DNA of 64,000 nucleotides from Flaccisagitta enflata. Its lineage: Eukaryota. How positions within the stretch are numbered: position 1 is the stretch's first letter; every line of letters begins with the position of its first letter. The notes beneath the pieces are model-generated. The model did not search any database and was not told the DNA's origin. It saw only the letters and a list, made by a program, of their open reading frames with translations. Position numbers and translations under genes: made by a program. This document shows positions 10,348 through 60,422 of the stretch, in pieces. The DNA is taken from NCBI GenBank assembly GCA_965153355.1, contig OZ231126.1, positions 12,524,001 to 12,588,000 of the forward strand, in the 5' to 3' direction.

Positions 10348-10752
10348 CATTTTAAACCCTAGGTATTACATTTTATGAATTGTGTCATTGGCATTAATGG
10401 ATTGAGTTGGATTCCTACTGTAAAGTCGTTAAGTCTTTGGAGGTCAGAATATCAAAGAAGACGCGGTAAGGACCGCACTCAACCAATAAATATCATTGTA
10501 CAGTTCCACGAGTTAAAACTGTCATTCATTTGTCCAATGATTTGAATGTTGATGTTACCACAAAACGGATTAGAGGGGTTTTAAATGAAGCAATAGACAA
10601 TAAGCTGGCAATAGGAATAGTAAACGTGAGGAAGGTTTTGATTAGGTCTTATTTGATGTCTCTAAAGATCAATATTGGCAATGACACGCGTGTTACGCGA
10701 CTTTATCAGTTGCTTCATTGGATGGTCCATCTGTTGGTTGATTGATGGATGA

Positions 10753-11253
<501 letters not shown>

Positions 11254-12752
11254 TAGAAGCCTTGCCTGTTCTTGTAATTCGCATGTGAGACGGACAGGGA
11301 GTTCAGAAATGGTCTGAGTGACAAACATATATGCCGATGGACTTCAAAAGATTCACATTGCATCTCAAAATTTCTGCTCTTGTCTCATTGGGCCTAGATT
11401 CTAGTTTTGGAGCAAGATCCCTCATGCAACTTCCAGTCACGCCTTTCTATGGGCTGCTCCGAGTTTTTATGCGCATTTGATCGAGTCATGAGTGTGGTCA
11501 TACATCATATTTATGCTATCTCATATCTCGATAGTCCAAAATGAGTAACAGGCTCGAGTATTGATGTATAATCGGTGAAAATCAATGAAATAATGCATAA
11601 AATATAATGGCCATATCTAAAGAAAACTGGGTTCCCTCGCCTGTTTGATCAACGAGGCCGCGGAAACATTTTGCTAGAACCAACACTTCCGGTATAAAAC
11701 AGATGGAACCTATGGCTAATCTTATGGTTACTTACACTACAAAAAGAATTTGGAGGCTTCAGGCGTATAAGTATGCTCATAAATTTATTCTGAAGCGAAG
11801 ATACCATGATGACCTTCAGAAATTGGAAATTTGTCCAAAGTTCGTAATTTGATAAAAAATAGCTATTGAGCAATCAATGAGTGGGGATTTTTGAGTAGGG
11901 TTAGTATCTACATGTGTTATGGAGCATTGTTTGTTTTTATATGCTAAATTGGTTTTCAGAGCAAGGTTTTCACTCTTTAATAGGTTTTCGAAAATATTAT
12001 TTTCATATTTGAGAATTAAGAATATCAAAAAATAAGAGAAAAATTGCATTTATAAAAACATACCGGCCTTGGTATTGTAAATGGCTAGCCCGGTATGTTT
12101 TTGGTTTTTTCATTTTCTCATTTTTCATGCAAATTCTTAATTCTCAATGATTTAAGTTTGTCAACTGTTTTCTTCTTTTTTCCGCGAATTTCTGTGTAAA
12201 TCAGCAAAGATTGCTAGACAAGGAAAAAACATAATAGGCTCAGCATTAGTTGTATGCGAGTGAGTAGGGGCGTTGTCAGGGCTGGATACAGGGCCAATGT
12301 CAGAATCAAGAAATTGGGCAGGGGTGGTAACATGATCTAGCGGTGGCAGAATTATGAAGTAAGAAAAGAGAGGAATGATAAGCAGATACAATAAATGAAT
12401 AACTGAATGAATGAATGAATGACTGAATGAATGAATGAAATAATTAATGAATGAATGAGTTAGTGTTGAATGAATTATTGATTGAATGAATGAATGGATC
12501 AACATGATCAATACGTTGGTCCGCGTCCGCCCGTGAGCACTGAGCATGAGTCAAAAAGTGGCAAAACAATTGTCGTAGATGTTTGTGTCTGTTTGGGGGT
12601 GGGGGGGGGGCGGGGTGGTTGGAGGTTGGATACCCCTGCCCACCCGTCCGCGACGATATTGTAACCCTGGTCCCTGCATTACTTGTTATATCTAGTCCAG
12701 TCTGTCCCTTCTGGTTTGAAATATCTGTTTACATGTCTTGTTTGTCAGGATG

Positions 12753-13382: not shown

Positions 13383-13997
13383 TTTAGGCTGTTATTCCAC
13401 AAACCCCACTGTATGTATGGAAAATTATGTCACGATGGAAGAATAAATGAAAGATTAAATCGAAAAATTGATTTATAGATAAATTTTAGAAAAAGATGAA
13501 ATAAATGTAAAATGAACAAATAAGTAAAAACAACAACGTGACGTGGCGAAGAAACACGATCTCTCTTCGACCTTCGCGGCTTTCCAAGAAAAATCATCAA
13601 AAAACTGCTTCAACCATAATGTAATCGGCTGTAAATACACTCAAAATTCCATCTTTTTGTTCTCCACCCAACTGCAAATTTTCATCTCAATCAGTCAACG
13701 GGAAGGGTCAAAACTTTGAAAGAAACTACCATCATTAATGGGATTGATTTTATTTCATCATCAAAAAAATCGCTATCGTGGTCTCACTCTCTCATCGCCT
13801 CATATTTGTTTGGAATCTAAAGTCCAAGTTGAATCAGTTCTCCAACCTCGGTCTTCTTGTGTAACAACTACAGCTAAGAATTTGTGTTACAAAACCATTT
13901 ACTCCTTCGCGGCTAAAAAAAAAACTACTTCACAGAACCAAAGACTGAATCTTACTGAAGGAAATTGTCATCTTTCCGTGTTAATAAAGCTCAAGAC

Positions 13998-14989
13998 ATG
14001 GAGAAAATACAGCATGATATTGCGCAACTGGAAAAAGAGTCAAAAGAAACAAATGAATGGAAAACCAAAATGGATGCTCTACTCATGACCTTCAAAAAAG
14101 GTTTTGAAGGTTTTGAAAAAGTCGTGGAAGGCATTAACAATAATCATACAGCTTTGAATGAAACAATTGCCATGCTAACCATTAAAATGAAAAATCATAT
14201 CACAAGTGCTGATTCCTTCAAAGCCCAAGTGGTTAAGCATCAGGTTGCCTCAAAAACCGAATTTGAAGCCTTTGGAAAGAAATTGACTAAATCACAACAA
14301 CAGTTAGATGCAACAAATCGCAAGTTTGCGGAGGAGATGGAAAAAAACAGGCGTATCAAAGATGAATTGAAGACCAAGATGGATGCCATTGGAGAAAGAA
14401 CAACATCAACTGACGTCAGATTACAGGAGCTCCAAACCGAATTTCAAGCCATCAAGGCAAAAGTGGATGAAATTCACAATTCTGCACAAAGTTCAACCAA
14501 CCCTGCCACAATGAATAAAGGCACACCTGTGCAATTTGTTCCAGAATGGGTCTTGCGTGAACAAAAGAGAAACAACATCATCATTTTTGGTCAACAGGAA
14601 ACAGATGACGATCTTGCCATGATCAAATTGCTTGCTGGTGACTTGGACCTGGACCTGGATCCTTCTACGGACATTGTTCATCATTTTCGTGTTGGAACAT
14701 CAAACAGTAGCAATTTGCGCCCTGGTCGTTAAATTTGTATGCTCAGAAAAAAGAGGCAATGCTCCTGATGGCAAAGAAGCTGAGAGGAATGGAGAAATGG
14801 AACGGGGTGATTATCACTCACGACATGACAAAATTGGAATGTCAAGTGGAAAAAGCATGGGAGATTAAATTGCGGCAAGATGCTGAGCATTTGAACAATT
14901 CTCTTACTGCAGATGAAAAAAGCGTCAAGTTTTTCAAAGTTATTGGCGGCCGCATGAGAGCAAGAATAGCATGCTTTCCCATTAAATGA
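13998..14989 (+). pseudogene. Non-LTR retrotransposon ORF1-like protein (coiled coil plus RRM-like region), frameshifted, no ORF2
   Basis: Long coiled coil, then EQKRNNIIIFG..., HFRVG...LRP, LVVKF (second frame) and ITHDMTKLE (third frame). These match the RRNNIIIxG / RPLxVKF / DLTKxER motifs of LINE ORF1 proteins; frameshifts near 14720-14750. Confidence 0.7.
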
Positions 14990-27899: not shown

Positions 27900-28610
27900 T
27901 TTGTTGTTCGGCAGGTCCCTCGGCTGGTTGGGTGGTAGGCTGGTTTGACAAGATAGTGTGCATGTGTTGAGTTCTTCCATTTAGAAACTCCATACCAAGT
28001 TTCAATCAAATTGTTTGAAAAATTTCAAAGTTATGCAAGTTTTTCAGTTTTAGGCTGATAGGCTAGTTGGGTGGTACGCTGGTTTGCTCGGTTAGCATGT
28101 GAATTGCTGGTTGGGTGGTAGGCTGGTTTGACAAGATAGTGTGCATGTGTTGAGTTCTTCCATTTAGAAACTCCATACCAAGTTTCAATCAAATTGATTG
28201 AAAAATTTCAAAGTTATGCAAGTTTTTCAGTTTTAGGCTGATAGGCTAGTTGGGTGATACGCTGGTTTGCTCGGTTAGCATGTGAATTGCATACATGTGT
28301 TAAGTCCCTCTATTTTGAAACTACATATTAACCAAATCGGTTAAAAAATGCTATAGTTACGCATGTTTTTTTACTTTTAGGCTGGTTGGGCTGGTTGGGA
28401 TGGTCGGATCAAACAAATCAGATAGGATGTAAAACGCCTTACCCTAGTGCTACTTCCCACCAAATATCAACCACATTAGTAAAAAAACATAAAAGTTATC
28501 CATATTTTAAAATCCATGACAACAACAACACCCACCCGCCTTGAATTATAAAAAAATTGCACTGGCTGAGGATGAAAGCTTCGTACAAAGTGACCAATGC
28601 TTACGACTTT
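27900..28610 (+). mobile_element. Dispersed element with internal tandem repeats of about 150-180 bp (probably HINE-type)
   Basis: 27923-28105 is repeated almost exactly at 28106-28288; a homologous copy lies inverted at 32705-33920. Confidence 0.6.
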
Positions 28611-28925
28611 ATTCCACACGGCAATTACTGCCATTACTGGTAGGAGTTATGTTGATCAGCTTATCTTTTTTCAGTGACAGTACGTTACTACATCGTTATA
28701 TTAGCTCTAGTGCTTTTAAGCCATCTTTTGCGACGGTCTTCTTAAGAGTGACTTCGTCATCAAAGTGATTCCCGTTATTCGGCAGTAACTCTTCGTGTTT
28801 CTTCCTAAAGCAGAGCCTTGCATCGTTCTTCGGCGTGGCAAAATCTCATCGGCAGAATCGTCGTTTAGCAGGGCGTCTTCGAGTATCACATCTTAAATCT
28901 TATATTAAGCGTTCCAGTTGGCTTA

Positions 28926-29605
28926 ATGAACATGAATATCATCGTAACTTCGTCTCAAGATCCCGTAGCCAATGCGACTCACGCCAAGTGTGCTATATGC
29001 CTCGGCATTGTCCCAGCTAGGAGGGCTTCAATACATCGAATTAAGTGTGAGGAGCAAAACCCCGATCTCGTGCCTCCGTTTCGATGCGCTGGTGCTTCAG
29101 GCCATATGTTCCATACTGCGTTTGAGTTGGAAAGGCACGAGCGATCTTGCCCTTGCCTTGCGGAGATACGAGAGTCACTCCTTGGGCCACCCCGACCAGT
29201 TGTGACGGGCAATGTACGTGCGCCGACTCCAACCAATCTCATTCCCGACGAACAATGGACAGATGAAGATCTCATAGAGACCGATCGATCTTTCGAATTG
29301 CCGCCCGTCCGCGATGACGAATACGACGCGTACACGGCAAAGGCAGTTCATGCCTTGGCAACCGAATTTTCTGATGATTGTCCTATTCGCAAGTGAGTTT
29401 TTCTGCACTCGTTGTTTCTTTGAGTTTCGTTTGATGGTGATACTTAACTCTCAACGCACCTCATCGCAACTTAATACATCAACATCATGATACAATAGAT
29501 AAACCTAGTTAAATACTGCATCACGATGCTGATGGAGTAACCACATTGGGTTGCGATTTATTTAATAGCTAATGCCTTTCTAATCCCCTCTCTCTCTCTC
29601 TCTCT

Positions 29606-29651
<46 letters not shown>

Positions 29652-31309
29652 CATACACACACAGAATTAAACGTTTACATCAACGCGCTCTTGGCATAGT
29701 GAATGGAAAGGGCAGCATCCGTGAGAGCGTTCCCATCATAACCCTCCCCATCAGCAATCCGCCAATAGCTTCTCATGATCCGCTATCGCATGAGGTCATT
29801 TCGGACCTTCTGGCGCTGAGTCCTATGGAGCGTGAGAAGCGGATGATTCAGCTTCTGATGCAGTTAAAAAGAAAGCATCCAACTGGGGAGCAGAAGGCGA
29901 CTTTTATTGCGCGGGCCAAATCGTTTTGCGCCATGATTGATCATGATCGGCTGCCACGCTTTGTTTTGAACCTTTGCGATGGAAACTTTCGAGAATTAGG
30001 CCATTGGGAATCAGGCCTTGGCCACTCAACGCCTATCCAAGTGGCTTACACGCTGGGCCTTGGTCATATCAGTGTGGAAATCTTCGAAACTTATCTATAT
30101 TGGAATTCTTGCCTTGAAGAAGAAGTAGTTTTCGAATTCGCCAAATTAGCGGGAAAACAACGTGTTGGAGATGCGATTGAGCAACTGATCAAGCTGCTTA
30201 ATCCGAAATTTGATGCCATCAGCCATCTTCAACTGAATGAATTTTTCTTTGATCGCATCTCTAAATTGGATGGAATTCCGCCTCCAAACCCGCAACGTGT
30301 TCGCAAGTTCATCTCGGAACTGAGTGATAGTGTGGGACTCTCAGACAAAACGGAATTTGAACAAGTCAATGAATATTTCAAGAAACTCTTGGATCGCCTC
30401 TCTCAGGGGGGTATGGAGCTCGTGGATTTTGTTATCAGGATCCATCAGGCATGTGGGGAAGAGGACCGATATTGGTTGGCAATCTTTACGCTGCTCTATG
30501 AGAAGATGCCTGACGTTGGATATGTTTTGTACAAGACCTTGTCGCCCCTGGATGGTTTTGTCCATCTCCAGCCGCCTGTTGATGTTGCCTTGCTCCCCTC
30601 AAGTTTTAAAGAAGCTAAATGCGACAAAAACGGGGTTTATTTCCACGAGCTCTGCGATTCGGCTTCATTTTTGGTTGTTGAGCAAGAAGAAGACTACAAC
30701 CGTGCCATCGCATCAATTGTTGCGGAGACTGGACCCATTCCGCTTGTGGTGAGGAAATCTCAACTCCCGCCGCACCTTCCCAGACCTCCCGGCTTTGCAG
30801 TTCTAGCAATTATTGCTGAAGATATGACCTTCATTTTGCAAGCTGAGTCAATCATCCTAGGCTCCCCGCAGGAGGCGCTCTTTCGTCGTCTCGTCAATTC
30901 CTTGTCTTCAAAATATTTGATTGTTTCGGGTTCCGCGGGATGGTCGCCGCTGACCATGATTCATGCCCTTCATCGTGAATTTGAGCCCTGCTTTCCCATC
31001 TTGCTGACCACGGTTCTTCAAAAGCAAACTACGAAGAAAGATGCCTTGGCTTTACTTGTTTTGCCTGATGGCGAAGCTGTTTGTCACAGATTTGAGCTGA
31101 CCATCTGGGAGTATTTCGAAGATGACGATGACCTGAAAATCCGCCACTTGGCTGCTCAACTCCAACTCATAAAAAGGGCGACATCTATTTTGATGGCAAA
31201 TGGTGCCAGTTTGGAGTCCCTCGCTGTCGATGGCCACCGCTCTTACAAGAAGGCCCAGAAGAAAGCTACGCGACCATTCAAGAATTATCCCTTCAAAGTT
31301 GTTGATTAA
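28926..31309 (+). CDS. Transposon accessory gene B, 703 aa: GTSF1/Asterix-like tandem zinc fingers fused to a degenerate Mut-7/EXD3-like 3'-5' exonuclease domain
   Basis: Exon 1 is 28926-29392 (donor AA|GTGAGT); exon 2 is 29665-31309 (acceptor ACACAG after a (CT)n tract). The phase-2 join is in frame (2112 nt). Fingers: CAIC-x11-HRIKC-EEQNPD and C-x5-H-x10-H-x3-C, then acidic DEQWTDED. The C-terminal region follows the Mut-7 exonuclease motif order but lacks the catalytic acidic residues. Confidence 0.8.
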
Positions 31310-31400
31310 TGAGGACGTGGTATTGGAAGAAAACGGCAATCACATTACTTTTCTAAAAACTTGTAGCGACAATGACTACGCAATTGAAAGGGTCCATATT

Positions 31401-32524
31401 TTAATGAAACTGAAAAAAACTCTTGAAATACTTTTTCGCCAGTTTTACATGACGTAGTGACGGTCGTGCCATTGGAACATCAGCCAACAATCGTTCTTCC
31501 TTCGCCAGGCGCTGTCCCGACCGCGAGACGGCATCCATTCCTTTCACGTCTTCCGCCACGATAGATCCCAAATGTGTGTAAATAAATAATGCGTATAAAT
31601 AATCAACACGTTCATAGCGAATCTCGTCTGGGAGTTCTGGATCATCGATAAACACTCTCAAACCCATTTTGTGCAAATCCATAAGGCGGAATAATTTCAT
31701 AATTTTCGCGCTGGCGGATGGCTTCGCACGTTGAGGCTCGGGCTGCCGGCGTAGGATCGCAGTAGACTAAATTGGCGCCATAACTTTCTGATAATAATGG
31801 GTCAAAAGCGTCAACCAAATGGTAGGGTAACATCTGTTCGCTGGGGTTAGAGACGTGTAATAATCTTCCTATTACCCCCCCCCCACAATTGCCATGGGAG
31901 ATAAGGACGCCATTCAACGGCAACCCACCGCAAGTGCAAATGCGGGATCGATGTCTTCATAACTCGGTGTCGTGATCGTGATAAAGAGATACGCCGCAAC
32001 CCCATCTTGTAGGAACTCGTGATAAGTGGGAACAAAGAGTGGGAAAGTCTTGTAAGCCGACCCAACAGCGTCGGAAACCCAACTATCATTTCCGTTTCTT
32101 CAGTTCTTCGAATCTTACATCTCGGAATAACATGGTGTTTAACGCCAAAGGACATGCGTCTCGACTGAAGAACATCACTCGTTTCTGCTTCTCTGCTTCT
32201 TTGAAGGGCGTTGCGGAGGTCCAAACTAGTGACAAAGGCGGATCGCCGTTCGTCTTCCGTTGGTGGCCAATGACTTAGTCGCCAGTACAAATAAGTCACG
32301 CCGCTGGTGCTGGTGTACACAGAGGCGTCATGAAATTTGAGTGTTTCTTTGTCAGATTCCTATTTGTGATTAGTTTCGCGCGACATGACAATAGTTTGGT
32401 CGGGAAATCGCTCTCGAATCCCTCAGCAGTCAAATCTTGACAGGCGGAAAGGATTGGGGAATTCGCGAGATCCGTCACCCATATTCGGCGTTTCAAACAC
32501 TCATTTTATAATTTCTTTCTCCAT
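31401..32524 (-). pseudogene. Probable frameshifted cargo gene of unknown function
   Basis: Four consecutive overlapping minus-strand ORFs (32296-32496, 31847-32320, 31642-31923, 31401-31700) in non-repetitive, coding-like, GC-richer DNA. One shift lies at the C-run near 31875-31884. No family recognised. Confidence 0.4.
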
Positions 32525-32704
32525 CACCTTTGTATCTTTAAGCGCCGGTATGGAAAAGCCGGTATGGAAGAGACTGCTTTACAATGACGCGTTTTGAGAT
32601 TAGGGGAATCTTAAATTTTAACGTAGATCCGATTATTAGTAACTTCTCATTATGAACGTGAATATTATCTGAATGTTAATGGATGTAAAGGCCGTTAGAT
32701 AAGT

Positions 32705-33920
32705 TTTTTTGTCCGCGACGGATTTTAAAAAATAGATAACTTTTTTATGCTTTGACTGATCTGGTTCATATTTGGTTGGAAGTTGTACAAGGGTAAGGTG
32801 CTTTACATCCTATCCGATTTTTGTGATCCAACCAACCCAACCAGCCCAACCAGCCTACCGGCCTAAAACTGAAAAATGTGCATAACTTAGGCATTTTTCA
32901 ATCGATTTGGTTGAAATTTGGTATGGAGTCTCTAAATGGAAGGACTCAACATATGTATGTGATTTATATACATTTGAGCATGCTAACCGGCCAAACCGAC
33001 CTACCACCTAACCAGCCTACCGACCAAAAAGTGAAAAACTTGCATAACTTAGTCATTTTTCAACTGATTTGGTTGAAACTTGGTATGGAAGAACTCAACA
33101 TATGCACACTATTTATCCTGTCATACCAGCCTACTACCCAACCAGCCTACCAACCTACTAGCCTAAAAGTGTAAAAAGTGCATATCTTTGGCGTTTTTCA
33201 ACCAATTTAGTATGGAGTCTCTATATGGAAGGACTCAACACATGTGTGTGATTTTTTTATTTGAGCATGCTAAGCAGCCAAACTGACCTAGCACCCAACC
33301 AGCTTACCAGCCTAATAGTGAAAAAACTTGCGTATATTGGATATTTTTCAACTAATTTGGTTGAAACTTGATATGGAGTTTCTAAATGGAAGAACTCAAC
33401 ATATGCACACTATTTATCCAAACCAGCCTATCACCCAACCAGCCTACCACCCAACCACCCTACTACCCAACCACCTTACTAGCCCAAAAGTGAAAAACGT
33501 GCATAACTTTGCCATTTTTTAACTTTTTTATGCTTCGACCTATTTGGTTTATATTTAATGGAAGGTTGTAATAGGGTAAGGCGCTTTATATCCTATCCAA
33601 ATTTTGAGATCCGATCAATCCAACCAGCCCATCTAGCCTACCAGCCTAAAAAGTGAAAAACATGCATAACTTTGGCATTTTCCAACCGATTTAGTTGAAA
33701 TTTCGTATGGAGTCTCTTCATGGAAAAACTCGACATATATATGTGTCCTAAGTGATTTGTATTAATTTGAGCCTGCCAACCAGCCAAACCAGCCTACCAC
33801 CTAATCAGCCTACCAGCCTAGAAGTGAAAAACTTGCATAACATTATCATTTTTTAACCAATTTGGCTGAAACATGGTGTGGAGTCTCTAAATGGAAGAAC
33901 TCTACATATGCACGCTATGT
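32705..33920 (-). mobile_element. Second, inverted copy of the tandem-repeat-containing element family
   Basis: About 7-8 diverged units containing GCATAACTT..CATTTTTCAA..GATTTGGTTGAAA..TGGTATGGAG; 32705-32830 is the reverse complement of about 28405-28520. Confidence 0.65.
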
Positions 33921-36534
33921 GAACTTTTACTTGTTGCAATCTGAAGAGTTAGTGATCTTTTGATTAAATTGATCTTAAGGAATCTTCAACCCCCTTCCCT
34001 CCTGGACGCAAATACAGTTCAGATTTTCTCTTTTTACTGAGCTATGGATATTTGTGATCTAAGTAGCCATTTTGTCATTGTCATCGTCCAACAAATATAA
34101 GCTTCTTAATGTGTTTACCTAGTTTTAGATAATGATAAAGCAAATCATGATGATTGTCACTCACTGTAACTCTCTCTGTGTAACGTTCTGGGCTTAGACA
34201 TAAGAAACAGAAAATGGAGACTTTACTGCAGCAAAAACTGACTGCCCTGCGGGAAAAGTTTGATGCGCACCCTATTTCAAGAGATGCCTTAAAATCCGAC
34301 TCAAACTTCCTTCGTGACTTGCGTTGTAAATGCGGTTGGACAATTTCCATAAAAGAAGGAGCAAGGCCCTCCAAGGTTCTTACTGAAGTAAAAGAACACT
34401 ATGCCAAAAGAAAAACCATTTCCACAGCCCGAAAATTTAAGAATTCTGATGATCGGCACAGCCTCTTTGGATTCCATTTGGAGGATGATAACATTGTGTG
34501 CCACCAAACACCATCTGTCTTGGGGTGGCTTAATCCTGCAGCGGCAAGGGCCCCTCCTCAGCCAACAATACCTACAAACAAAAAGTATGTCTACCCAACA
34601 TCTGCTATAGATGAAATTCAACAACAAGAGAATGAAAAAAAGGACATAAAGCAAGCTTCTTTTGAAAGTGTGCAACAGCAAGAGAATGAAAAAAGGGACA
34701 AAGAGCAAACTGCCTTTGAAAGTGTTCAACAACAGGAACAAGAGAATGAACAGCAACAAAACTCACTGAGCGAAACTGCCATTGCAGAATCAGATCAGCG
34801 TGAACGTCAACGAATGCAAAATTCCTTTAAAGCCATGTTAGATCAGTTTGCCAAAATGCCTACAACTCCAGACTGGCTTATGAATCTCATTTGGGCTCAC
34901 AAAAATGGTAAAATCGATGCCGTACAAACCGCCGCACTAGAAGCTTTGGGGTCATCTTTCACTGACGCTCCTCGGAACCGACAATATTGCGAATTGAGTA
35001 AGGTTTTGTTCCGATACTTCAGTCTCACACAATCTGAAAAGTCCTATGAAGTATTTCGCCGCATTTATGGTGGTCCGACTTTTCGATATCTGACCGCTCT
35101 ACGCATAGACATTCTCACTGATGTGGGTTGTACAACCCGAAATATGGTGGAAGCGCGTATTTTCTTTGAAAAGGTAAGTTGTTGAAGTTTTTTTTATTCG
35201 TGGACATGCGACTCCACCTTGCCGTGTCGGTCGGTCCGTCAGTCACATTTCTGAATAGCGATTGGTTTTCGCATTACTGCTCCTGCCCAACTGTCCGCAA
35301 CTGTATTGCCGTGTATCCGGCCTTGTTTATTTCCAAAATTCAGAAAATGCTAACATAGTAACATTCTCCAAAGATGGAGATGTTCAAAAAGAGGCTCTTT
35401 AGCCATGTAAACAATTATTCACTGTCAGTTGGTCAGTTTTTAGGTTGAGTATTTAAGTATGAATTTAGTGATCAAAGTAGGTACTCTGCTATGAATAGAA
35501 AACCGCTTGCGACAGTCACCCCATTGACCTTGTTTAATCCTAATCTTGTTCTTGACAGATGGGCTACAAAGGCGTTATGATATGGGCTCATGATGAACAT
35601 CCAACCATGTGGGGCCTCAACTTTGATACTGCAAGTGGCCAAATAATCGGCGGCACTAATAAAACGCCACACGGAGACCTTAAAACAGTGAATGATGTGA
35701 TAGATTTCCTCAAAAAGCATACCAATGTTAGCAATCAACCAACTGTCTCATTGGTTGGGGCAATTTGTGCCTTGGGGAAACGTCTCCCGCTCTGTCCAGT
35801 TAGTTCTGAGCTCAGCCCACTTCTCAAAGGAGTGACATGGGAGTTTTTAACCACCTATTTGGAAAATGTTGGTAAAGCCGCCTTTTTGGCACTAGTGATT
35901 ATCGTTGCCATAGTGACAGACAATGATACGAGGATGCGTGGCAACACTTTAAACACTTGCTTGAAGGAACATATGAAAGAAGATGACGTTTATGTTGAAA
36001 TTGATCATCCAGCTTCCAGAATTGTTGCTCCTTGCATTTTCAACCGAGGTAAACCGGTTGCAAGACTCAAAGATGTGGAGCATCTACAGAAGGGATGGAG
36101 AAACAATCTTAATGTTCCAATGGTGTTGGGGTCCGAGAGTTTGTTTTGGTTGCACGTGGACCAAGTTCGTTTGTGTTTTCCTTACAGCCAGCATGGTTTA
36201 GGCGTCATGGACACCAACATTGCAGTAAGTGAATTTGTCCTCTTTAGTTTCTATAATATTTAGGCCTCCGTCGGTCCGTCTGTCGGTCCGTCCATTGATC
36301 CGTCTATCAGTCCATCATGGTCATCGAGTTGAAAAGTGGGAAAACAAGTGTTTTAGGTACTTGATAGATGCCCCAGCCCACCCGTCCACAACAATATTGT
36401 GACCCTGCGTCAATTGTTCAACTTAATCATCAAATCATCATATATGGACTAACTGATGGACAAAGCCTCTTGTAGAGTTGCACGAGTTATCACGGACCAT
36501 TGTAGATGGATCTTTAGAAGGACTGATTGTAAAG

Positions 36535-38642
<2,108 letters not shown>

Positions 38643-39832
38643 TTGTAAAGCCACGAGTCTGCATCTAGAAAGATTATGGCAAGTTTCTTATGGTAACTCT
38701 TATCATTCAACAAAATATCAACTCAGTGACATTCTGATTGAACAACATGACAATAATTTCTGCATATTGAGCTGTTGTTCTTGTTTCAGCAAGAGCTGGT
38801 AGGTCTCTTTTTGCTTTTTCTGGTCGTGGATACGCGACTACACCCTGATGTGTCGGTCCATCTGTCTTTAACGCTTTAAGTTTGTCTATTAGTCACATTT
38901 GTTAATTGCAAGCGGTTTTCACACTACTGCTCCTGCCAATTTATTTGTGACTGGATCGCCATGTATCCAGCGTTTTTTAAAGTTTTGGAAGCGCAACTCT
39001 TTTAGAGGCTTTGTCCGTCCATCAGTCCATTTGTTGGTTCATGTTCAAGAGTCGAAAATGGGGAAAACAAGTCTTTTAGATCCTTTTTGAGTATGTGTTT
39101 GTTGAAAGGGGGGGGTGGGGTGTGGATGGTTGTTAGGAATCCACTGCCCACCCATCCGCAAAGATATTGTGACCCCGCATCACTTGTTGCATCATTGCTC
39201 CTGGCATTTGACATATACAGCTCACTCAGCCTATTGTAACAAGTCTCTTGTTGTATAGAATGTAATAGACCAATGCCCATGTACAACTACTTTTCATCTT
39301 CTTCACAGGATCGCCAGAAAGTGTCGCCAGCCCAGAGGGTATTGCATCCAAGAGTGCGCAAGTGCCTGAGAGAGCTTGACCGGAGGAAGAAGTCTAGCGA
39401 CCGAGAAGGGCTTTGTATCTACCTGGAGGTCGGTGATAAAATGGTGGAAGCTTTAATGAGCCAAGAGATGGACTTTCTTCAAAGGATATATTATGTATGG
39501 CGAGCTCATTTTTTTCTTCAAGAATGGAAGGCCTGGTTTTTACATGAAAATAACTGCTACTCCGGGAAATTTAGAATAAATGCCTTACCATCTCAGCAGA
39601 TAATGGATGGAGTAGAGATAACAGCCAATGGTCTCACTCTGCTTATTATCATTATGGCCGAGTTCTATCCAAATGAACCGCTCTTAGTTGATCAAGTCAA
39701 TACTAAGAAGCTAGAAAATTTCTTCGGCACTGTTCGACAACAGCCTGGTAATTGTCAAAGCCACACATTGCAAGAAATGATGGGAAAGCAACGAAGAGCG
39801 GTTCTGAAAGACTTGACTGAAAACGAGTTGAA

Positions 39833-40556
39833 ATAGCAGCCCAAAGGCAGTAAGTGGTCAGCGGTACCCGTGCCCTGCTTGAGTAGTATGTGATTTAGGT
39901 TGAGGGGGAGCAGGGCAGCGGCCCCGAAGGGGACGAAGTCCTGTAGAACACAGGGGAATCTGTCCATCCGTCCGTTCGTCTGTCCTCCTCAGCTTTCCTT
40001 GCCTTCAGGATGCCAAATTATGAAAATCTCAAATGACAAATGGAAATATACAAGGGCAATTGGACAAGGGTGGGGGAGCAGGCCAGGATCTAGGTCTCTG
40101 AGGCCAGAATCTGGGTCTCAGAGGCCAGGGTTGGAGTCTCTGAGGCCAGGTCTTTGGGAGGAGGATAGGGCCTTGAGATTTAGGTCCAGGTCCTGGGTCC
40201 TGGAGGCCAGAATCTGGGTCACAGAGAGCAAGATCTAGATCTCTGAGGCTAGGATTAGGGTTTTAGAGGCCAGAATCTGGGTATTAGAAACCAGGATCTA
40301 GATCTTAGGGGCCAAAATGATTGAATTTTGACCAAAATTCAGGTTTTCTAGCCAGAATTTAGCCATTTTGCTTGGATTTTGCCATTTTGCTTGGATTTGG
40401 GCCATTTTGCTTGGATTTGCACTCCAAAGAAGACAAAGCCCTGAGAATGGGGCGGGGGGGGGACGGACGTACGGACGTACGGACGTACGGACGGACGGAC
40501 GGACAGATTCCCCCTGTGTTCTACAGGACTTCGTCCCCTTCGGGGCCGCTGCCCAA
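39833..40556 (-). mobile_element. HINE family B inserted in transposase exon 3
   Basis: Near-perfect inverted repeats (39912-39965 vs 40501-40554). Removing it restores GAG TTG AAG TAC (ELKY); it inserted at an AA/TT site, as Helentrons do. Confidence 0.85.
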
Positions 40557-41763
40557 AAGTACTGTGATAAACTACCTCAAGAAGCTCAAAAATTGCCCGA
40601 CAATTGCTACCCAGCAAATATCCCTGATTTACGGCATGAAATCAATTGCCGCATTGATCAAGCTAAAAAAGATGTAAAAGAAATGTTAAAGCCTTTCTTA
40701 GTTCTACCTTCCGATCCTGCTGATCCCCAAGAAGCTGTTTCATCTGAATTTGAAAGAGAGGAAGGTGGCTTTAGCGATGATGACGAAGACCAGTCACATG
40801 AGTTCCAAGACACTGGATTGTCACAGAAATCCGCTCACACTGTTGTTGATGAAGATGGGAGCCATCATAGTATACCATCCCTTGTGAGTGAATGGATAGG
40901 GAATCCAAGAAGAAACCGGGCAAGCAATAGGCTAGCACGATTCCTTAATGATCTCCACTACATGCCCCGCGATACTAATCCTCGCCTCTTTGAACAAGTT
41001 CGCGAGGGCATAATTTTAAGAATCAATGACTATGTGCTTTACCCAAAGAGGCTTAACAAGCAGAAAGACTTGCTTGTCGGAAAAGTCATTTGTTTTGTGA
41101 ATCATTACATTGCAAAAGGTGTTCAACGACAACAACAGCTTTTTGAAGCTAGCTCACGTGAGGATGAAGTCTGGTTGCGTCTTTTTACCGTTGACAAGAA
41201 TGGTCAGCTCCATTACTCCCACGAACGTTATGAAAAGGTTTCATTGGCGCTGATCAATTCACAACAGAACCTGACCACTGTGAGAAATGGAAAGATCTCA
41301 GATTTTGTTTTAGAACGATACTTTGAATTGAAACCTCTGCTTTGGAAGCCTTTTGATGATCTTGAGAAAGCAAAAGATGATGCAAAAAAAGCTGAAAGGG
41401 AAAAGAAACTGCAAGAGTGTACGGTTCCTATCACTTCATTGAGGTTGGATGAAGCCTGGAATGAGTGTTTTCGACGGTTGAAAATTAAGGATAAGAGAGA
41501 ACTGTTTGATGCATTAAAGCAGCTAGAAGGATCAATTTGTGCGGAGTTGGAGCTGGAGGAAACCAGCAGATCGTTTACTCTTGCTCGTTTAAAGCTGATA
41601 ATTTCCGTTTTGCGCAAGAATAACGTCTGGCTTCCAGAAGAGAATGACGATGACCAAGGAACTCAGGAAGAACCAGAAGTTACCCAAGCAGAAACTCAAG
41701 CTACCCAAATGGAAACTCAAGCTACTCAACCGGATGAGAATGATCATTGATGGTATGTCTTGC

Positions 41764-41769: not shown

Positions 41770-41932
41770 TGTGCTTAATTTATGTTTAGGCATATCTTTA
41801 TTCCTCCTTTCACATTAGGTAGTAGGCAAGTAAAGAACTTTATAACCCAGTACAAAGCTCAAATTTGCTAGTCAGCAGGATTAAGAACTACATAATTTAG
41901 ACGAAATTTTGACCCAAAAGACAAGTTGTTTA

Positions 41933-42998
41933 ATAGGTTTTTAACACATTGTTAGATAGGTTTAGGTTTATAACAAAATGTTAAAACGGTTTTTAACACA
42001 CTTAAAATGGTCTTTAATATTCAAATATAACACACTGTTGAATACGGTTTTTAACACATTATTAAAAAGTTTTTTAACATATTGTTTAAAAGGTTTTTAA
42101 CACATTGTTAAAAAGGTTTTTAACACATTGTTAAAAAGGTTTTTAACACATTGTTAATAAGGTTTTTAACACATTGTTAAAAAGGTTTTTAACAAATTGT
42201 TAATACGGTTTTTAACACATTGTTAAAAAGGTTTTTAACACATTGTTAAAAGTGTTTTTAACACATTGTTAAAAAGGTTTTTAACACATTGTTAAAAAGG
42301 TTTTAACACATTGTTAAAAAGGTTTTTAACACATTGTTAAAAAGGTTTTTAACACATTGTTAAAAAGGTTTTTAACACATTGTTAAAAAGGTTTTTAACA
42401 CATTGTTAAAAAGGTTTTTAACACATTGTTAAAAAGGTTTTAACACATTGTTAAAAAGGTTTTTAACACATTGTTAAAAAGGTTTTTAACACATTGTTAA
42501 AAAGGTTTTTAACACATTGTTAAAAAGGTTTTTAACACATTGTTAAAAAGGTTTTAACACATTGTTAAAAAGGTTTTTAACACATTGTTAAAAAGGTTTT
42601 TAACACATTGTTAAAAAGGTTTTTAACACATTGTTAAAAAGGTTTTTAACACATTGTTAAAAAGGTTTTTTAACACATTGTTAAAAAGGTTTTTAACACA
42701 TTGTTAAAAAGGTTTTTAACACATTGTTAAAAAGGTTTTTAACACATTGTTAAAAAGGTTTTAACACATTGTTAAAAAGGTTTTAACACATTGTTAAAAA
42801 GGTTTTTAACACATTGTTAAAAACGTTTTTAACACATTGTTAAAAAGGTTTTTAACACATTGTTAAAAAGGTTTTTAACACATTGTTAAAAAGGTTTTTA
42901 ACACATTGTTAAAAAGGTTTTTAACACATTGTTAAAAAGGTTTTTAACACATTGTTAAAAAGGTTTTTAACACATTGTTAAAAAGGTTTTTAACACAT
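41933..42998. repeat. Right subterminal array, 23-bp palindromic unit GGTTTTTAACACATTGTTAAAAA, about 40 regular copies
   Basis: Homogeneous from about 42047 to 42998 and degenerate upstream; each unit is TTTTTAACA-CAT-TGTTAAAAA. Confidence 0.95.
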
Positions 42999-58770: not shown

Positions 58771-59110
58771 TTTTTTACCCCCTCCGCGAAAATCGTTGTG
58801 TGCCAATTGCCCATTTTTCTTTGTCTCTGCTTAGTCTCTTTCCCTTTATTTCTCCGCATCTTTTACTGTTTCTGATTTTCTTCTGCCGGTCTGTTTTGTA
58901 AGTCAATTTCTGTATAAATTCCTGAATTGTTTAAACGCATATTGCCATGCTGCTCGCCATGCTAGCACTTTCTTTGCCTCTGTGTGTGTGCGTGTGTCGG
59001 TAACTCGGTATGCGTCTGCCGCTTCTACCTGTCTGCTTGTCTGTCTATCTTCCTGTCTGTCTGTATGTCTGTCTCTGTCTCTGTCTGTCAGTCTGTCTCT
59101 CTGTCTCTCT

Positions 59111-60422
<1,312 letters not shown>

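Follow-up and report, generated by a model that had tools for sequence, protein, structure and literature searches.

PIWI proteins are activated by small accessory proteins of the GTSF1 family, whose type of module contacts PIWI/Argonaute complexes, and the Mut-7/Nibbler enzymes trim the 3' ends of small RNAs. To our knowledge, neither EXD1 nor Maelstrom, two further components of the PIWI-interacting RNA (piRNA) machinery, carries a GTSF1-type finger module. Here we examine a locus on the forward (+) strand of a 64,000-nucleotide (nt) stretch of eukaryotic DNA from Flaccisagitta enflata (contig OZ231126.1), referred to below as the window, in whose numbering all coordinates are given. At this locus two exons (28926-29392 and 29665-31309) appear to form one gene that would encode a protein of 703 residues, with a GTSF1-like module at its N-terminus and a body that may descend from a Mut-7-type exonuclease. 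Overall, a new architecture in which a GTSF1-like module is joined to a pseudo-exonuclease is plausible and partly supported by the evidence presented here.

The closest described systems are outlined here. The GTSF1 family combines two tandem CHHC fingers with an unstructured acidic tail and acts in small-RNA pathways (10.1101/271270). Nibbler consists of an N-terminal domain (NTD) of HEAT-like repeats and a DEDDy exonuclease (EXO) domain, with loss of MUT7-C in drosophilids (PMC11347159). EXD1 and Maelstrom are described as catalytically inactive DEDD derivatives of the piRNA machinery that retain RNA binding, and the open reading frame (ORF) ORF3 of bdelloid rotifer retroelements encodes a DEDDy-type exonuclease (PMC5408684).

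The window module resembles GTSF1/Asterix in its length of ~150 residues, its two small, presumably zinc-binding fingers, its short linker and its acidic tail with a Trp motif, but it differs in that a C-x2-C replaces the first Cys/His pair of finger 1, in that the Pfam CHHC model leaves it unmatched and in that it is apparently the N-terminus of a 703-amino-acid (aa) protein rather than a free small protein. Exon 2 shares with MUT-7, Nibbler and EXD3, which are its top language-model neighbours, a predicted order of a helical N-terminal domain followed by ~200 residues of alpha/beta structure; unlike them, it has neither a PF01612 match nor the DEDD/Y residues (in either of the two alignment registers considered below) nor a MUT7-C domain, and the likeness is too faint for HMMER to register and only marginal by HH-suite. 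EXD1 and Maelstrom offer a precedent (PMC5408684) for nuclease-dead DEDD-type domains that are kept in the piRNA machinery, but no sequence relation to them was detected, and PDB searches, which cover many solved DEDD structures, gave no match. The bdelloid ORF3, likewise of exonuclease type, also sits in an unusual and possibly mobile setting (PMC5408684); in contrast to exon 2, it has a strong DEDDy homology and an intact catalytic motif, in which DEDD has become DEED. The earlier note on this DNA had held that a dead nuclease fused to a PIWI-binding module is an architecture without known example in host genes. For the dead DEDD domain this goes too far, given EXD1 and Maelstrom, whereas for the fusion it agrees with a full-text literature search, among whose listed papers none describing a GTSF1/Mut-7-type fusion was encountered. 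Both GTSF1 paralogues and dead DEDD domains of the piRNA pathway are already known, and what would be new is their fusion.

Exon 1 is very probably GTSF1-like, as the earlier note had proposed. Its best match among 177,635 PDB sequences searched with phmmer is mouse GTSF1 (gametocyte-specific factor 1; 6x46_A; E = 0.027, 17.6 bits). The similarity is weak and collinear, with residues 30-119 of the query aligned to residues 26-114 of the chain, and it reaches from the end of finger 1 through the linker and finger 2 to the acidic Trp motif. Residues paired in this alignment include H37-x3-C41, the NPD linker, the finger 2 ligands C54, H60, H71 and C75 and the tail motif DEQWTDEDL (nt 29247-29273), which lines up with the DEDW-DKDL stretch of GTSF1. 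Finger 1 has the variant form C22-x2-C25...H37-x3-C41 (nt 28989-29048) and finger 2 the order C-H-H-C (nt 29085-29150), with 10 residues between its two His where the canonical GTSF1 spacing is 9 residues. The tail (residues 77-156, 80 aa) contains 17 D/E versus 8 K/R, together with five W/F/Y. Two observations count against this assignment: finger 1 is without a His at the second ligand position, having C-x2-C instead of Cys...His, and the Pfam CHHC model (zf-U11-48K type) gave no match at E<=10 to the whole of exon 1 or to its single fingers. The sole Pfam family recovered at this threshold was zf-CRD (0.27), and in the strict Pfam sense exon 1 is not recognised as a member of the CHHC family.

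Exon 2, judged by its sequence conservation, is a real conserved protein and belongs to an unannotated family. Phmmer, run exhaustively against 1.84 billion cluster representatives, yielded 12 matches at E<=1e-3. Eleven of these are fragments, 78-136 aa long, with E values as low as 1.3e-20 and identities of 23-52%, that jointly span residues 77-507 of exon 2; the ten that were looked up (P0001-P0010) derive from ENA assemblies, lie on contigs of no more than 2,180 nt and carry no annotation. The other match, P0011 (567 aa, E = 1.9e-4), is a tandem mariner-like repeat protein that matches exon 2 residues 194-238 nine times at 38% identity, and was dropped as a repeat-inflated chance match. P0002, P0004 and P0008 are 39-52% identical to exon 2, with 18 invariant columns in residues 77-175; a further 23 columns are invariant among three sequences in residues 251-345, and P0010, P0003 and P0006 are 30-42% identical to the C-terminal region. 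Motifs conserved in the helical part include ELGH..G (29993-30016) and TPIQVAYTL (30029-30055). Scans of metagenome contigs and of viral contigs with the exon 2 alignments A2 and A6 each returned 0 relatives, and homologous-protein searches, one of which used the alignment A1 and covered only proteins of 30-41 aa, returned nothing. Even if DEDD ancestry fails, exon 2 would still define a conserved family with no annotated member among the cluster representatives searched.

The fragments also share break points. Five of the relatives end at one point, after ...FLVV at approximately residue 338 (nt ~30680), with tails that resemble read-through of a GT donor, and two begin at one point near residue 409 (nt ~30890). 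Since these ends coincide, the relatives appear to have two introns that are absent from exon 2 in the window. The lack of introns at ~338 and ~409 raises the possibility that the window copy is partly processed (retro-derived).

The exon 2 family is most likely, on sequence grounds, a very divergent member of the Mut-7/Nibbler type, with a helical N-terminal domain and an alpha/beta exonuclease-like domain. When the whole of exon 2 was submitted to the Atlas protein-language-model feature search, PF01612/mut-7 clusters came first, at 0.94 with 197 of 256 shared features, a number that on the Atlas scale is within range for 9 in 10 true family members versus 1-2 in 10 chance matches. The next two matches both scored 0.92 with 191 shared features, and one of the top clusters bears the name 'exonuclease mut-7 homolog'. 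In all, the PF01612/mut-7 family set accounts for 20 of the 30 matches. Residues 310-547 alone recovered PF01612 in two of the top three clusters (0.89, with only 140-146 shared features), the second match being a Rotifera cluster in which PF01612 accounts for 13%. A low-confidence AlphaFold2 (AF2) model contains helices only up to residue 292 of exon 2, and its secondary structure gives ~300 helical residues followed by ~200 of alpha/beta type, a layout that matches the NTD plus EXO plan of Nibbler as set out in the available part of PMC11347159. On this model, the first ~300 residues may correspond to the helical NTD of Nibbler/MUT-7. Profile comparison gave a marginal signal in the same direction. 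Using hhalign, the four-row alignment A4 was compared with 50 bacterial PF01612 domains, comprising 28 of RNase D type and 22 small exonucleases; against all 50, the P value was 0.011-0.0093 and the hhalign probability 3.9-4.4%. Of 200 column shuffles, which averaged 14.0 (standard deviation 2.7), two reached the observed score of 23.3, and the reversed query scored 12.4.

A considerable body of results weighs against a Mut-7 origin. Pfam detected no PF01612 at E<=10 in exon 2, in its halves or in eight fragments, and neither phmmer nor three profile searches found an exonuclease in the PDB; the profile searches (A1, A4 and A3) recovered nothing beyond bestrophin, PilC and a designed repeat protein, with E values of 0.05-1.7, the weak profile match to the designed helical-repeat protein 6fes having E = 0.048. 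A profile of 50 DEDDy sequences run with hmmsearch --max scored 0.5, 0.2 and -1.4 bits. Against the RNase D-type set alone, hhalign gave P values of 0.19 (global) and 0.059 (local), and its probability is ~4% even at a P value of 0.009. The mean predicted local distance difference test (pLDDT) of the AF2 model is 39.1 from the single sequence and 34.6 from A4. The proposal of the earlier note that exon 2 is Mut-7-like agrees with the top Atlas answer and finds no counterpart in the Pfam and PDB sequence and profile searches.

The placement of exon 2 on the exonuclease fold differs between two registers. In the hhalign register, PILLTTV falls on the ExoI strand, ALALLVLPDGEAVCHRFE on the next hairpin and LKIRHLAAQ on ExoII; this conflicts with the register of the earlier note and leaves only half a domain before the stop codon, which also speaks against the proposed ancestry. 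The earlier register, with FLVV... and PLVVRKSQ on ExoI and FAVLAII... on the hairpin, fares worse in statistical terms, since with the query restricted to the upstream part it scored 7.9 (P = 0.9). The five motif strings on which it was built are all present, in the order given for them, within 30638-31171, but their parallel with a DEDDy domain is not statistically supported in that register. An internal duplication of the C-terminal region was also considered and was rejected, hhalign of the two halves giving P = 0.23.

Neither register places conserved catalytic acidic residues at the candidate positions, in the window protein or in the relatives. In the register of the earlier note, the ExoI D-x-E position is occupied by VVRKSQ in the window protein and by VFAKGSS in P0010, and the Y-x3-D position reads H-x-A-[AG]-x-L in P0003, in P0006 and in the window protein. 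With the hhalign register, D-T-E is replaced by T-T-V, and the ExoII Asp is aligned to a gap. The sole D-x-E of the region (PDGEA) is not retained in the relatives. Pfam did not find the MUT7-C domain (PF01927) in exon 2, and the protein stops 45 residues past the last conserved motif. The absence of the ExoI DxE and ExoIII YxxxD residues, claimed previously, thus holds in both registers as far as conserved acidic residues are concerned, although it depends on an alignment that is not fixed. If the family is DEDD-derived, the whole of it would be nuclease-dead and conserved without an active site.

The same evidence has to be weighed against the possibility that a spliced gene with a GTSF1-like front carries a lineage-specific second exon, helical and alpha/beta in structure, that has no DEDD or Mut-7 ancestry and resembles these enzymes by chance. 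Under this explanation, it would be expected that all alignment-based tests fail or remain marginal, as they did, and that visual inspection finds a similar fit for two mutually incompatible registers, as it would for chance beta-hairpin-like patterns. The Atlas recognition value, at 2236, is under the line of 2300 below which a high score counts as weak evidence, and 4-10% of shuffled proteins obtain a first match of at least 0.9. A chance resemblance is less easily reconciled with the number of shared features, which is typical of true family members, with the recovery of the same family by the C-terminal part alone, with an hhalign score that beats 198 of 200 shuffles, or with an adjoining GTSF1-like module that suits a small-RNA role. 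We consider a lineage-specific exon 2 rather unlikely, and regard DEDD ancestry, which we infer with modest confidence, as a lead and not a finding.

The connection between the two exons depends on the geometry of a single junction. ORF1 begins with the ATG at 28926 and ends at a TGA (29394-29396) that lies inside a perfect GTGAGT donor (CAA/GTGAGT at 29392/29393), and the acceptor (...CACACAG/A) is at 29664/29665. Joining 29392 to 29665 maintains the reading frame, with a Lys codon split AA/A, and produces a coding sequence of 2112 nt, that is 703 codons followed by TAA (31307-31309), with no internal stops. The second ORF comprises 578 codons from stop to stop (29573-31309) and 547 aa when counted from the acceptor; the opening 31 codons amount to a CT microsatellite read as protein, which is followed by ...CACACAG. 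The earlier note had joined ORFs of 156 and 536 aa at 29664/29665 into a protein of 703 aa; the junction, the frame and the total were recovered here, and the figure of 536 aa was not. Within the putative intron there are three branch-like CTRAY sites (at 29529, 29569 and 29580) and a CT microsatellite with a 61-nt run (29588-29648) that would serve as the pyrimidine tract, and from 29575 onwards the first AG is that of the acceptor (29663-29664). A search for AATAAA and ATTAAA within the intron found neither, and its GC content is 0.40 versus 0.47-0.52 in the exons. From these features of the sequence we infer splicing of 29392 to 29665. The + strand of the 64 kb contains 22 GTGAGT/GTAAGT hexamers and 29 strong pyrimidine-tract acceptors, and from these counts we put the probability that a donor overlaps the stop, that an acceptor immediately precedes the conserved ORF and that the frames match, all together, at ~1e-4, as a rough estimate rather than a formal test. 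In addition, that two modules independently suggestive of small-RNA pathways lie 272 nt apart on one strand would be an argument from context for their fusion.

The alternative at this point is that there are two neighbouring genes, a single-exon GTSF1-like gene that ends at the TGA of ORF1 and a second gene that begins at Met54 of exon 2 (~nt 29825), the in-frame splice sites being coincidental. The junction rests on DNA sequence and not on RNA, CT microsatellites and pyrimidine tracts are very common in the window, where the 29 acceptor-like sites on the + strand are a case in point, and the homology of the relatives begins at approximately residues 58-77 of exon 2, downstream of Met54, all of which would suit two separate genes. 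Coincidence would, however, have to account for a perfect GTGAGT placed over the stop codon when there are only 22 such donor hexamers on the strand in 64 kb, for a reading frame that matches across the junction and for the absence of a poly(A) hexamer between the two ORFs. Moreover, the 53 codons that precede the first Met (M54) are coding-like in composition: their GC content at the first and second codon positions (GC1/GC2) is 0.60/0.43, compared with 0.60/0.48 in exon 1 and 0.56/0.35 in the remainder of exon 2, with GC1 exceeding GC2 throughout. One RNA run of the same study, of which ~6% was read (12.16 million records), had 0 reads on 28300-33100, a result that is neutral because the presence of the organism in the part read was not shown. 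We judge two separate genes to be unlikely.

Taken as a conjunction, one spliced gene with a GTSF1-like front and a Mut-7-derived body is, as far as the DNA sequence allows us to say, a tentative reading that we hold at somewhat less than even confidence; the competing explanations overlap in part. In the mechanism that we propose for it, the N-terminal 156 residues would be a divergent GTSF1-type module with two small zinc fingers and an acidic, Trp-containing tail, and the remaining 547 residues would be a Mut-7/Nibbler-type body from a family that has lost its metal-binding acidic residues. The product would then act as a non-catalytic adaptor in a small-RNA pathway of the piRNA type, in which the GTSF1-like end may dock on a PIWI protein, as members of the GTSF1 family do, and the pseudo-exonuclease body may hold the 3' end of an RNA or a partner protein, in the manner described for EXD1 and Maelstrom. 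If true, the natural joining of a GTSF1-type module to a dead Mut-7-type body would physically link two steps that have been studied separately, and would offer a way into the question of how GTSF1 recruits other factors or is itself recruited.

A less favourable outcome for the locus would be a non-functional retrocopy or a decaying chimera, whose frames are open by chance or through youth. Exon 2 is intronless where its relatives appear to have introns, and the surroundings contain few genes but many repeats and remnants of transposons, as would befit such a copy; yet the 703 codons are uninterrupted and the motifs conserved with the relatives, including the invariant columns of residues 77-175 and 251-345, are intact, and we regard decay as improbable. 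Very improbable, finally, is the explanation that the gene is cargo of a foldback-type mobile element with inverted 183-nt arrays and serves as a PIWI-binding decoy against host piRNA defence: the 183-nt repeat is confined to two places that bracket the gene, exon 2 is without the two introns apparent in its relatives, and transposon-borne DEDDy ORFs exist in bdelloid rotifers (PMC5408684), but there is only this single locus, no transposase lies within the bracket, the viral and metagenome contig scans gave no relatives, and intron-bearing relatives at 23-52% identity look like vertically inherited host genes. The most far-reaching proposal, a new class of small-RNA proteins in which a GTSF1-type module is fused to a nuclease-dead Mut-7/Nibbler body, and in its boldest version a transposon-carried decoy that suppresses piRNA silencing, is a long shot. 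The coordinates of the gene and of the features around it are collected in Table 1.

Table 1. Predicted gene and adjacent features, in window coordinates
Feature	Coordinates	Strand	Description or basis
Exon 1, GTSF1-like module	28926..29392	+	155 codons plus 2 nt
Putative intron, 272 nt	29393..29664	+	GTGAGT donor, CT-run pyrimidine tract, acceptor CAG
Exon 2, first ~300 residues, predicted all-helical	29665..30562	+	Conservation in relatives, low-confidence AF2 model
Exon 2, last 248 residues and TAA, alpha/beta, proposed degenerate non-catalytic DEDD-like domain	30563..31309	+	Relatives, Atlas, marginal hhalign
AATAAA, first canonical polyadenylation hexamer past the stop	31581..31586	+	272 nt downstream
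183-nt repeat, two tandem copies upstream of the gene, membership of the gene unit uncertain	27922..28288	+	Targeted blastn
183-nt repeat, ~7 degenerate copies downstream of the gene	32840..33918	-	Targeted blastn

Matches to the 183-nt repeat were found in 64 kb only at the two places listed in Table 1, the inverted arrays standing on either side of the gene; this bracket resembles the ends of a foldback-type transposon, or is a coincidence of a local satellite. When repeat finding was applied around the gene for long terminal repeats, the output was dominated by microsatellites.

Other ORFs of the window are of less certain nature. Just 3' of the gene, three overlapping ORFs of 104-170 aa occupy different frames of the - strand (31401-32359) and match no Pfam family; a converging gene may be represented here, either by exons or by a frameshifted remnant. 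Further downstream on the + strand (34184-41750) lie four long ORFs of 333, 235, 198 and 472 aa with no solid Pfam match. One of these, at 39240-39836, weakly matches (E = 0.11) a domain of P-element/THAP9-type transposases, the TNP-like RNase H C-terminal domain, and may represent a decayed or domesticated transposase interrupted by repeats. A coiled-coil ORF of 257 aa (13959-14732, +), which may encode a retrotransposon ORF1-type protein, gave a sub-threshold match to DUF7310 (4.7e-5; 24.2 bits versus a cut-off of 40). An ORF of 415 aa (59004-60251, +) runs from a CT/GT microsatellite into a non-repetitive, Cys-rich C-terminus, matches no Pfam family and probably encodes the end portion of a polyprotein from a retroelement. 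The window as a whole is extremely rich in microsatellites and dispersed repeats, with a microsatellite density that is unusually high throughout; it includes a trinucleotide array of ~700 nt (10640-11390), all six frames of which are open, and a satellite of ~1 kb with a 23-nt period (41900-42900), situated within a stretch of 29% GC.

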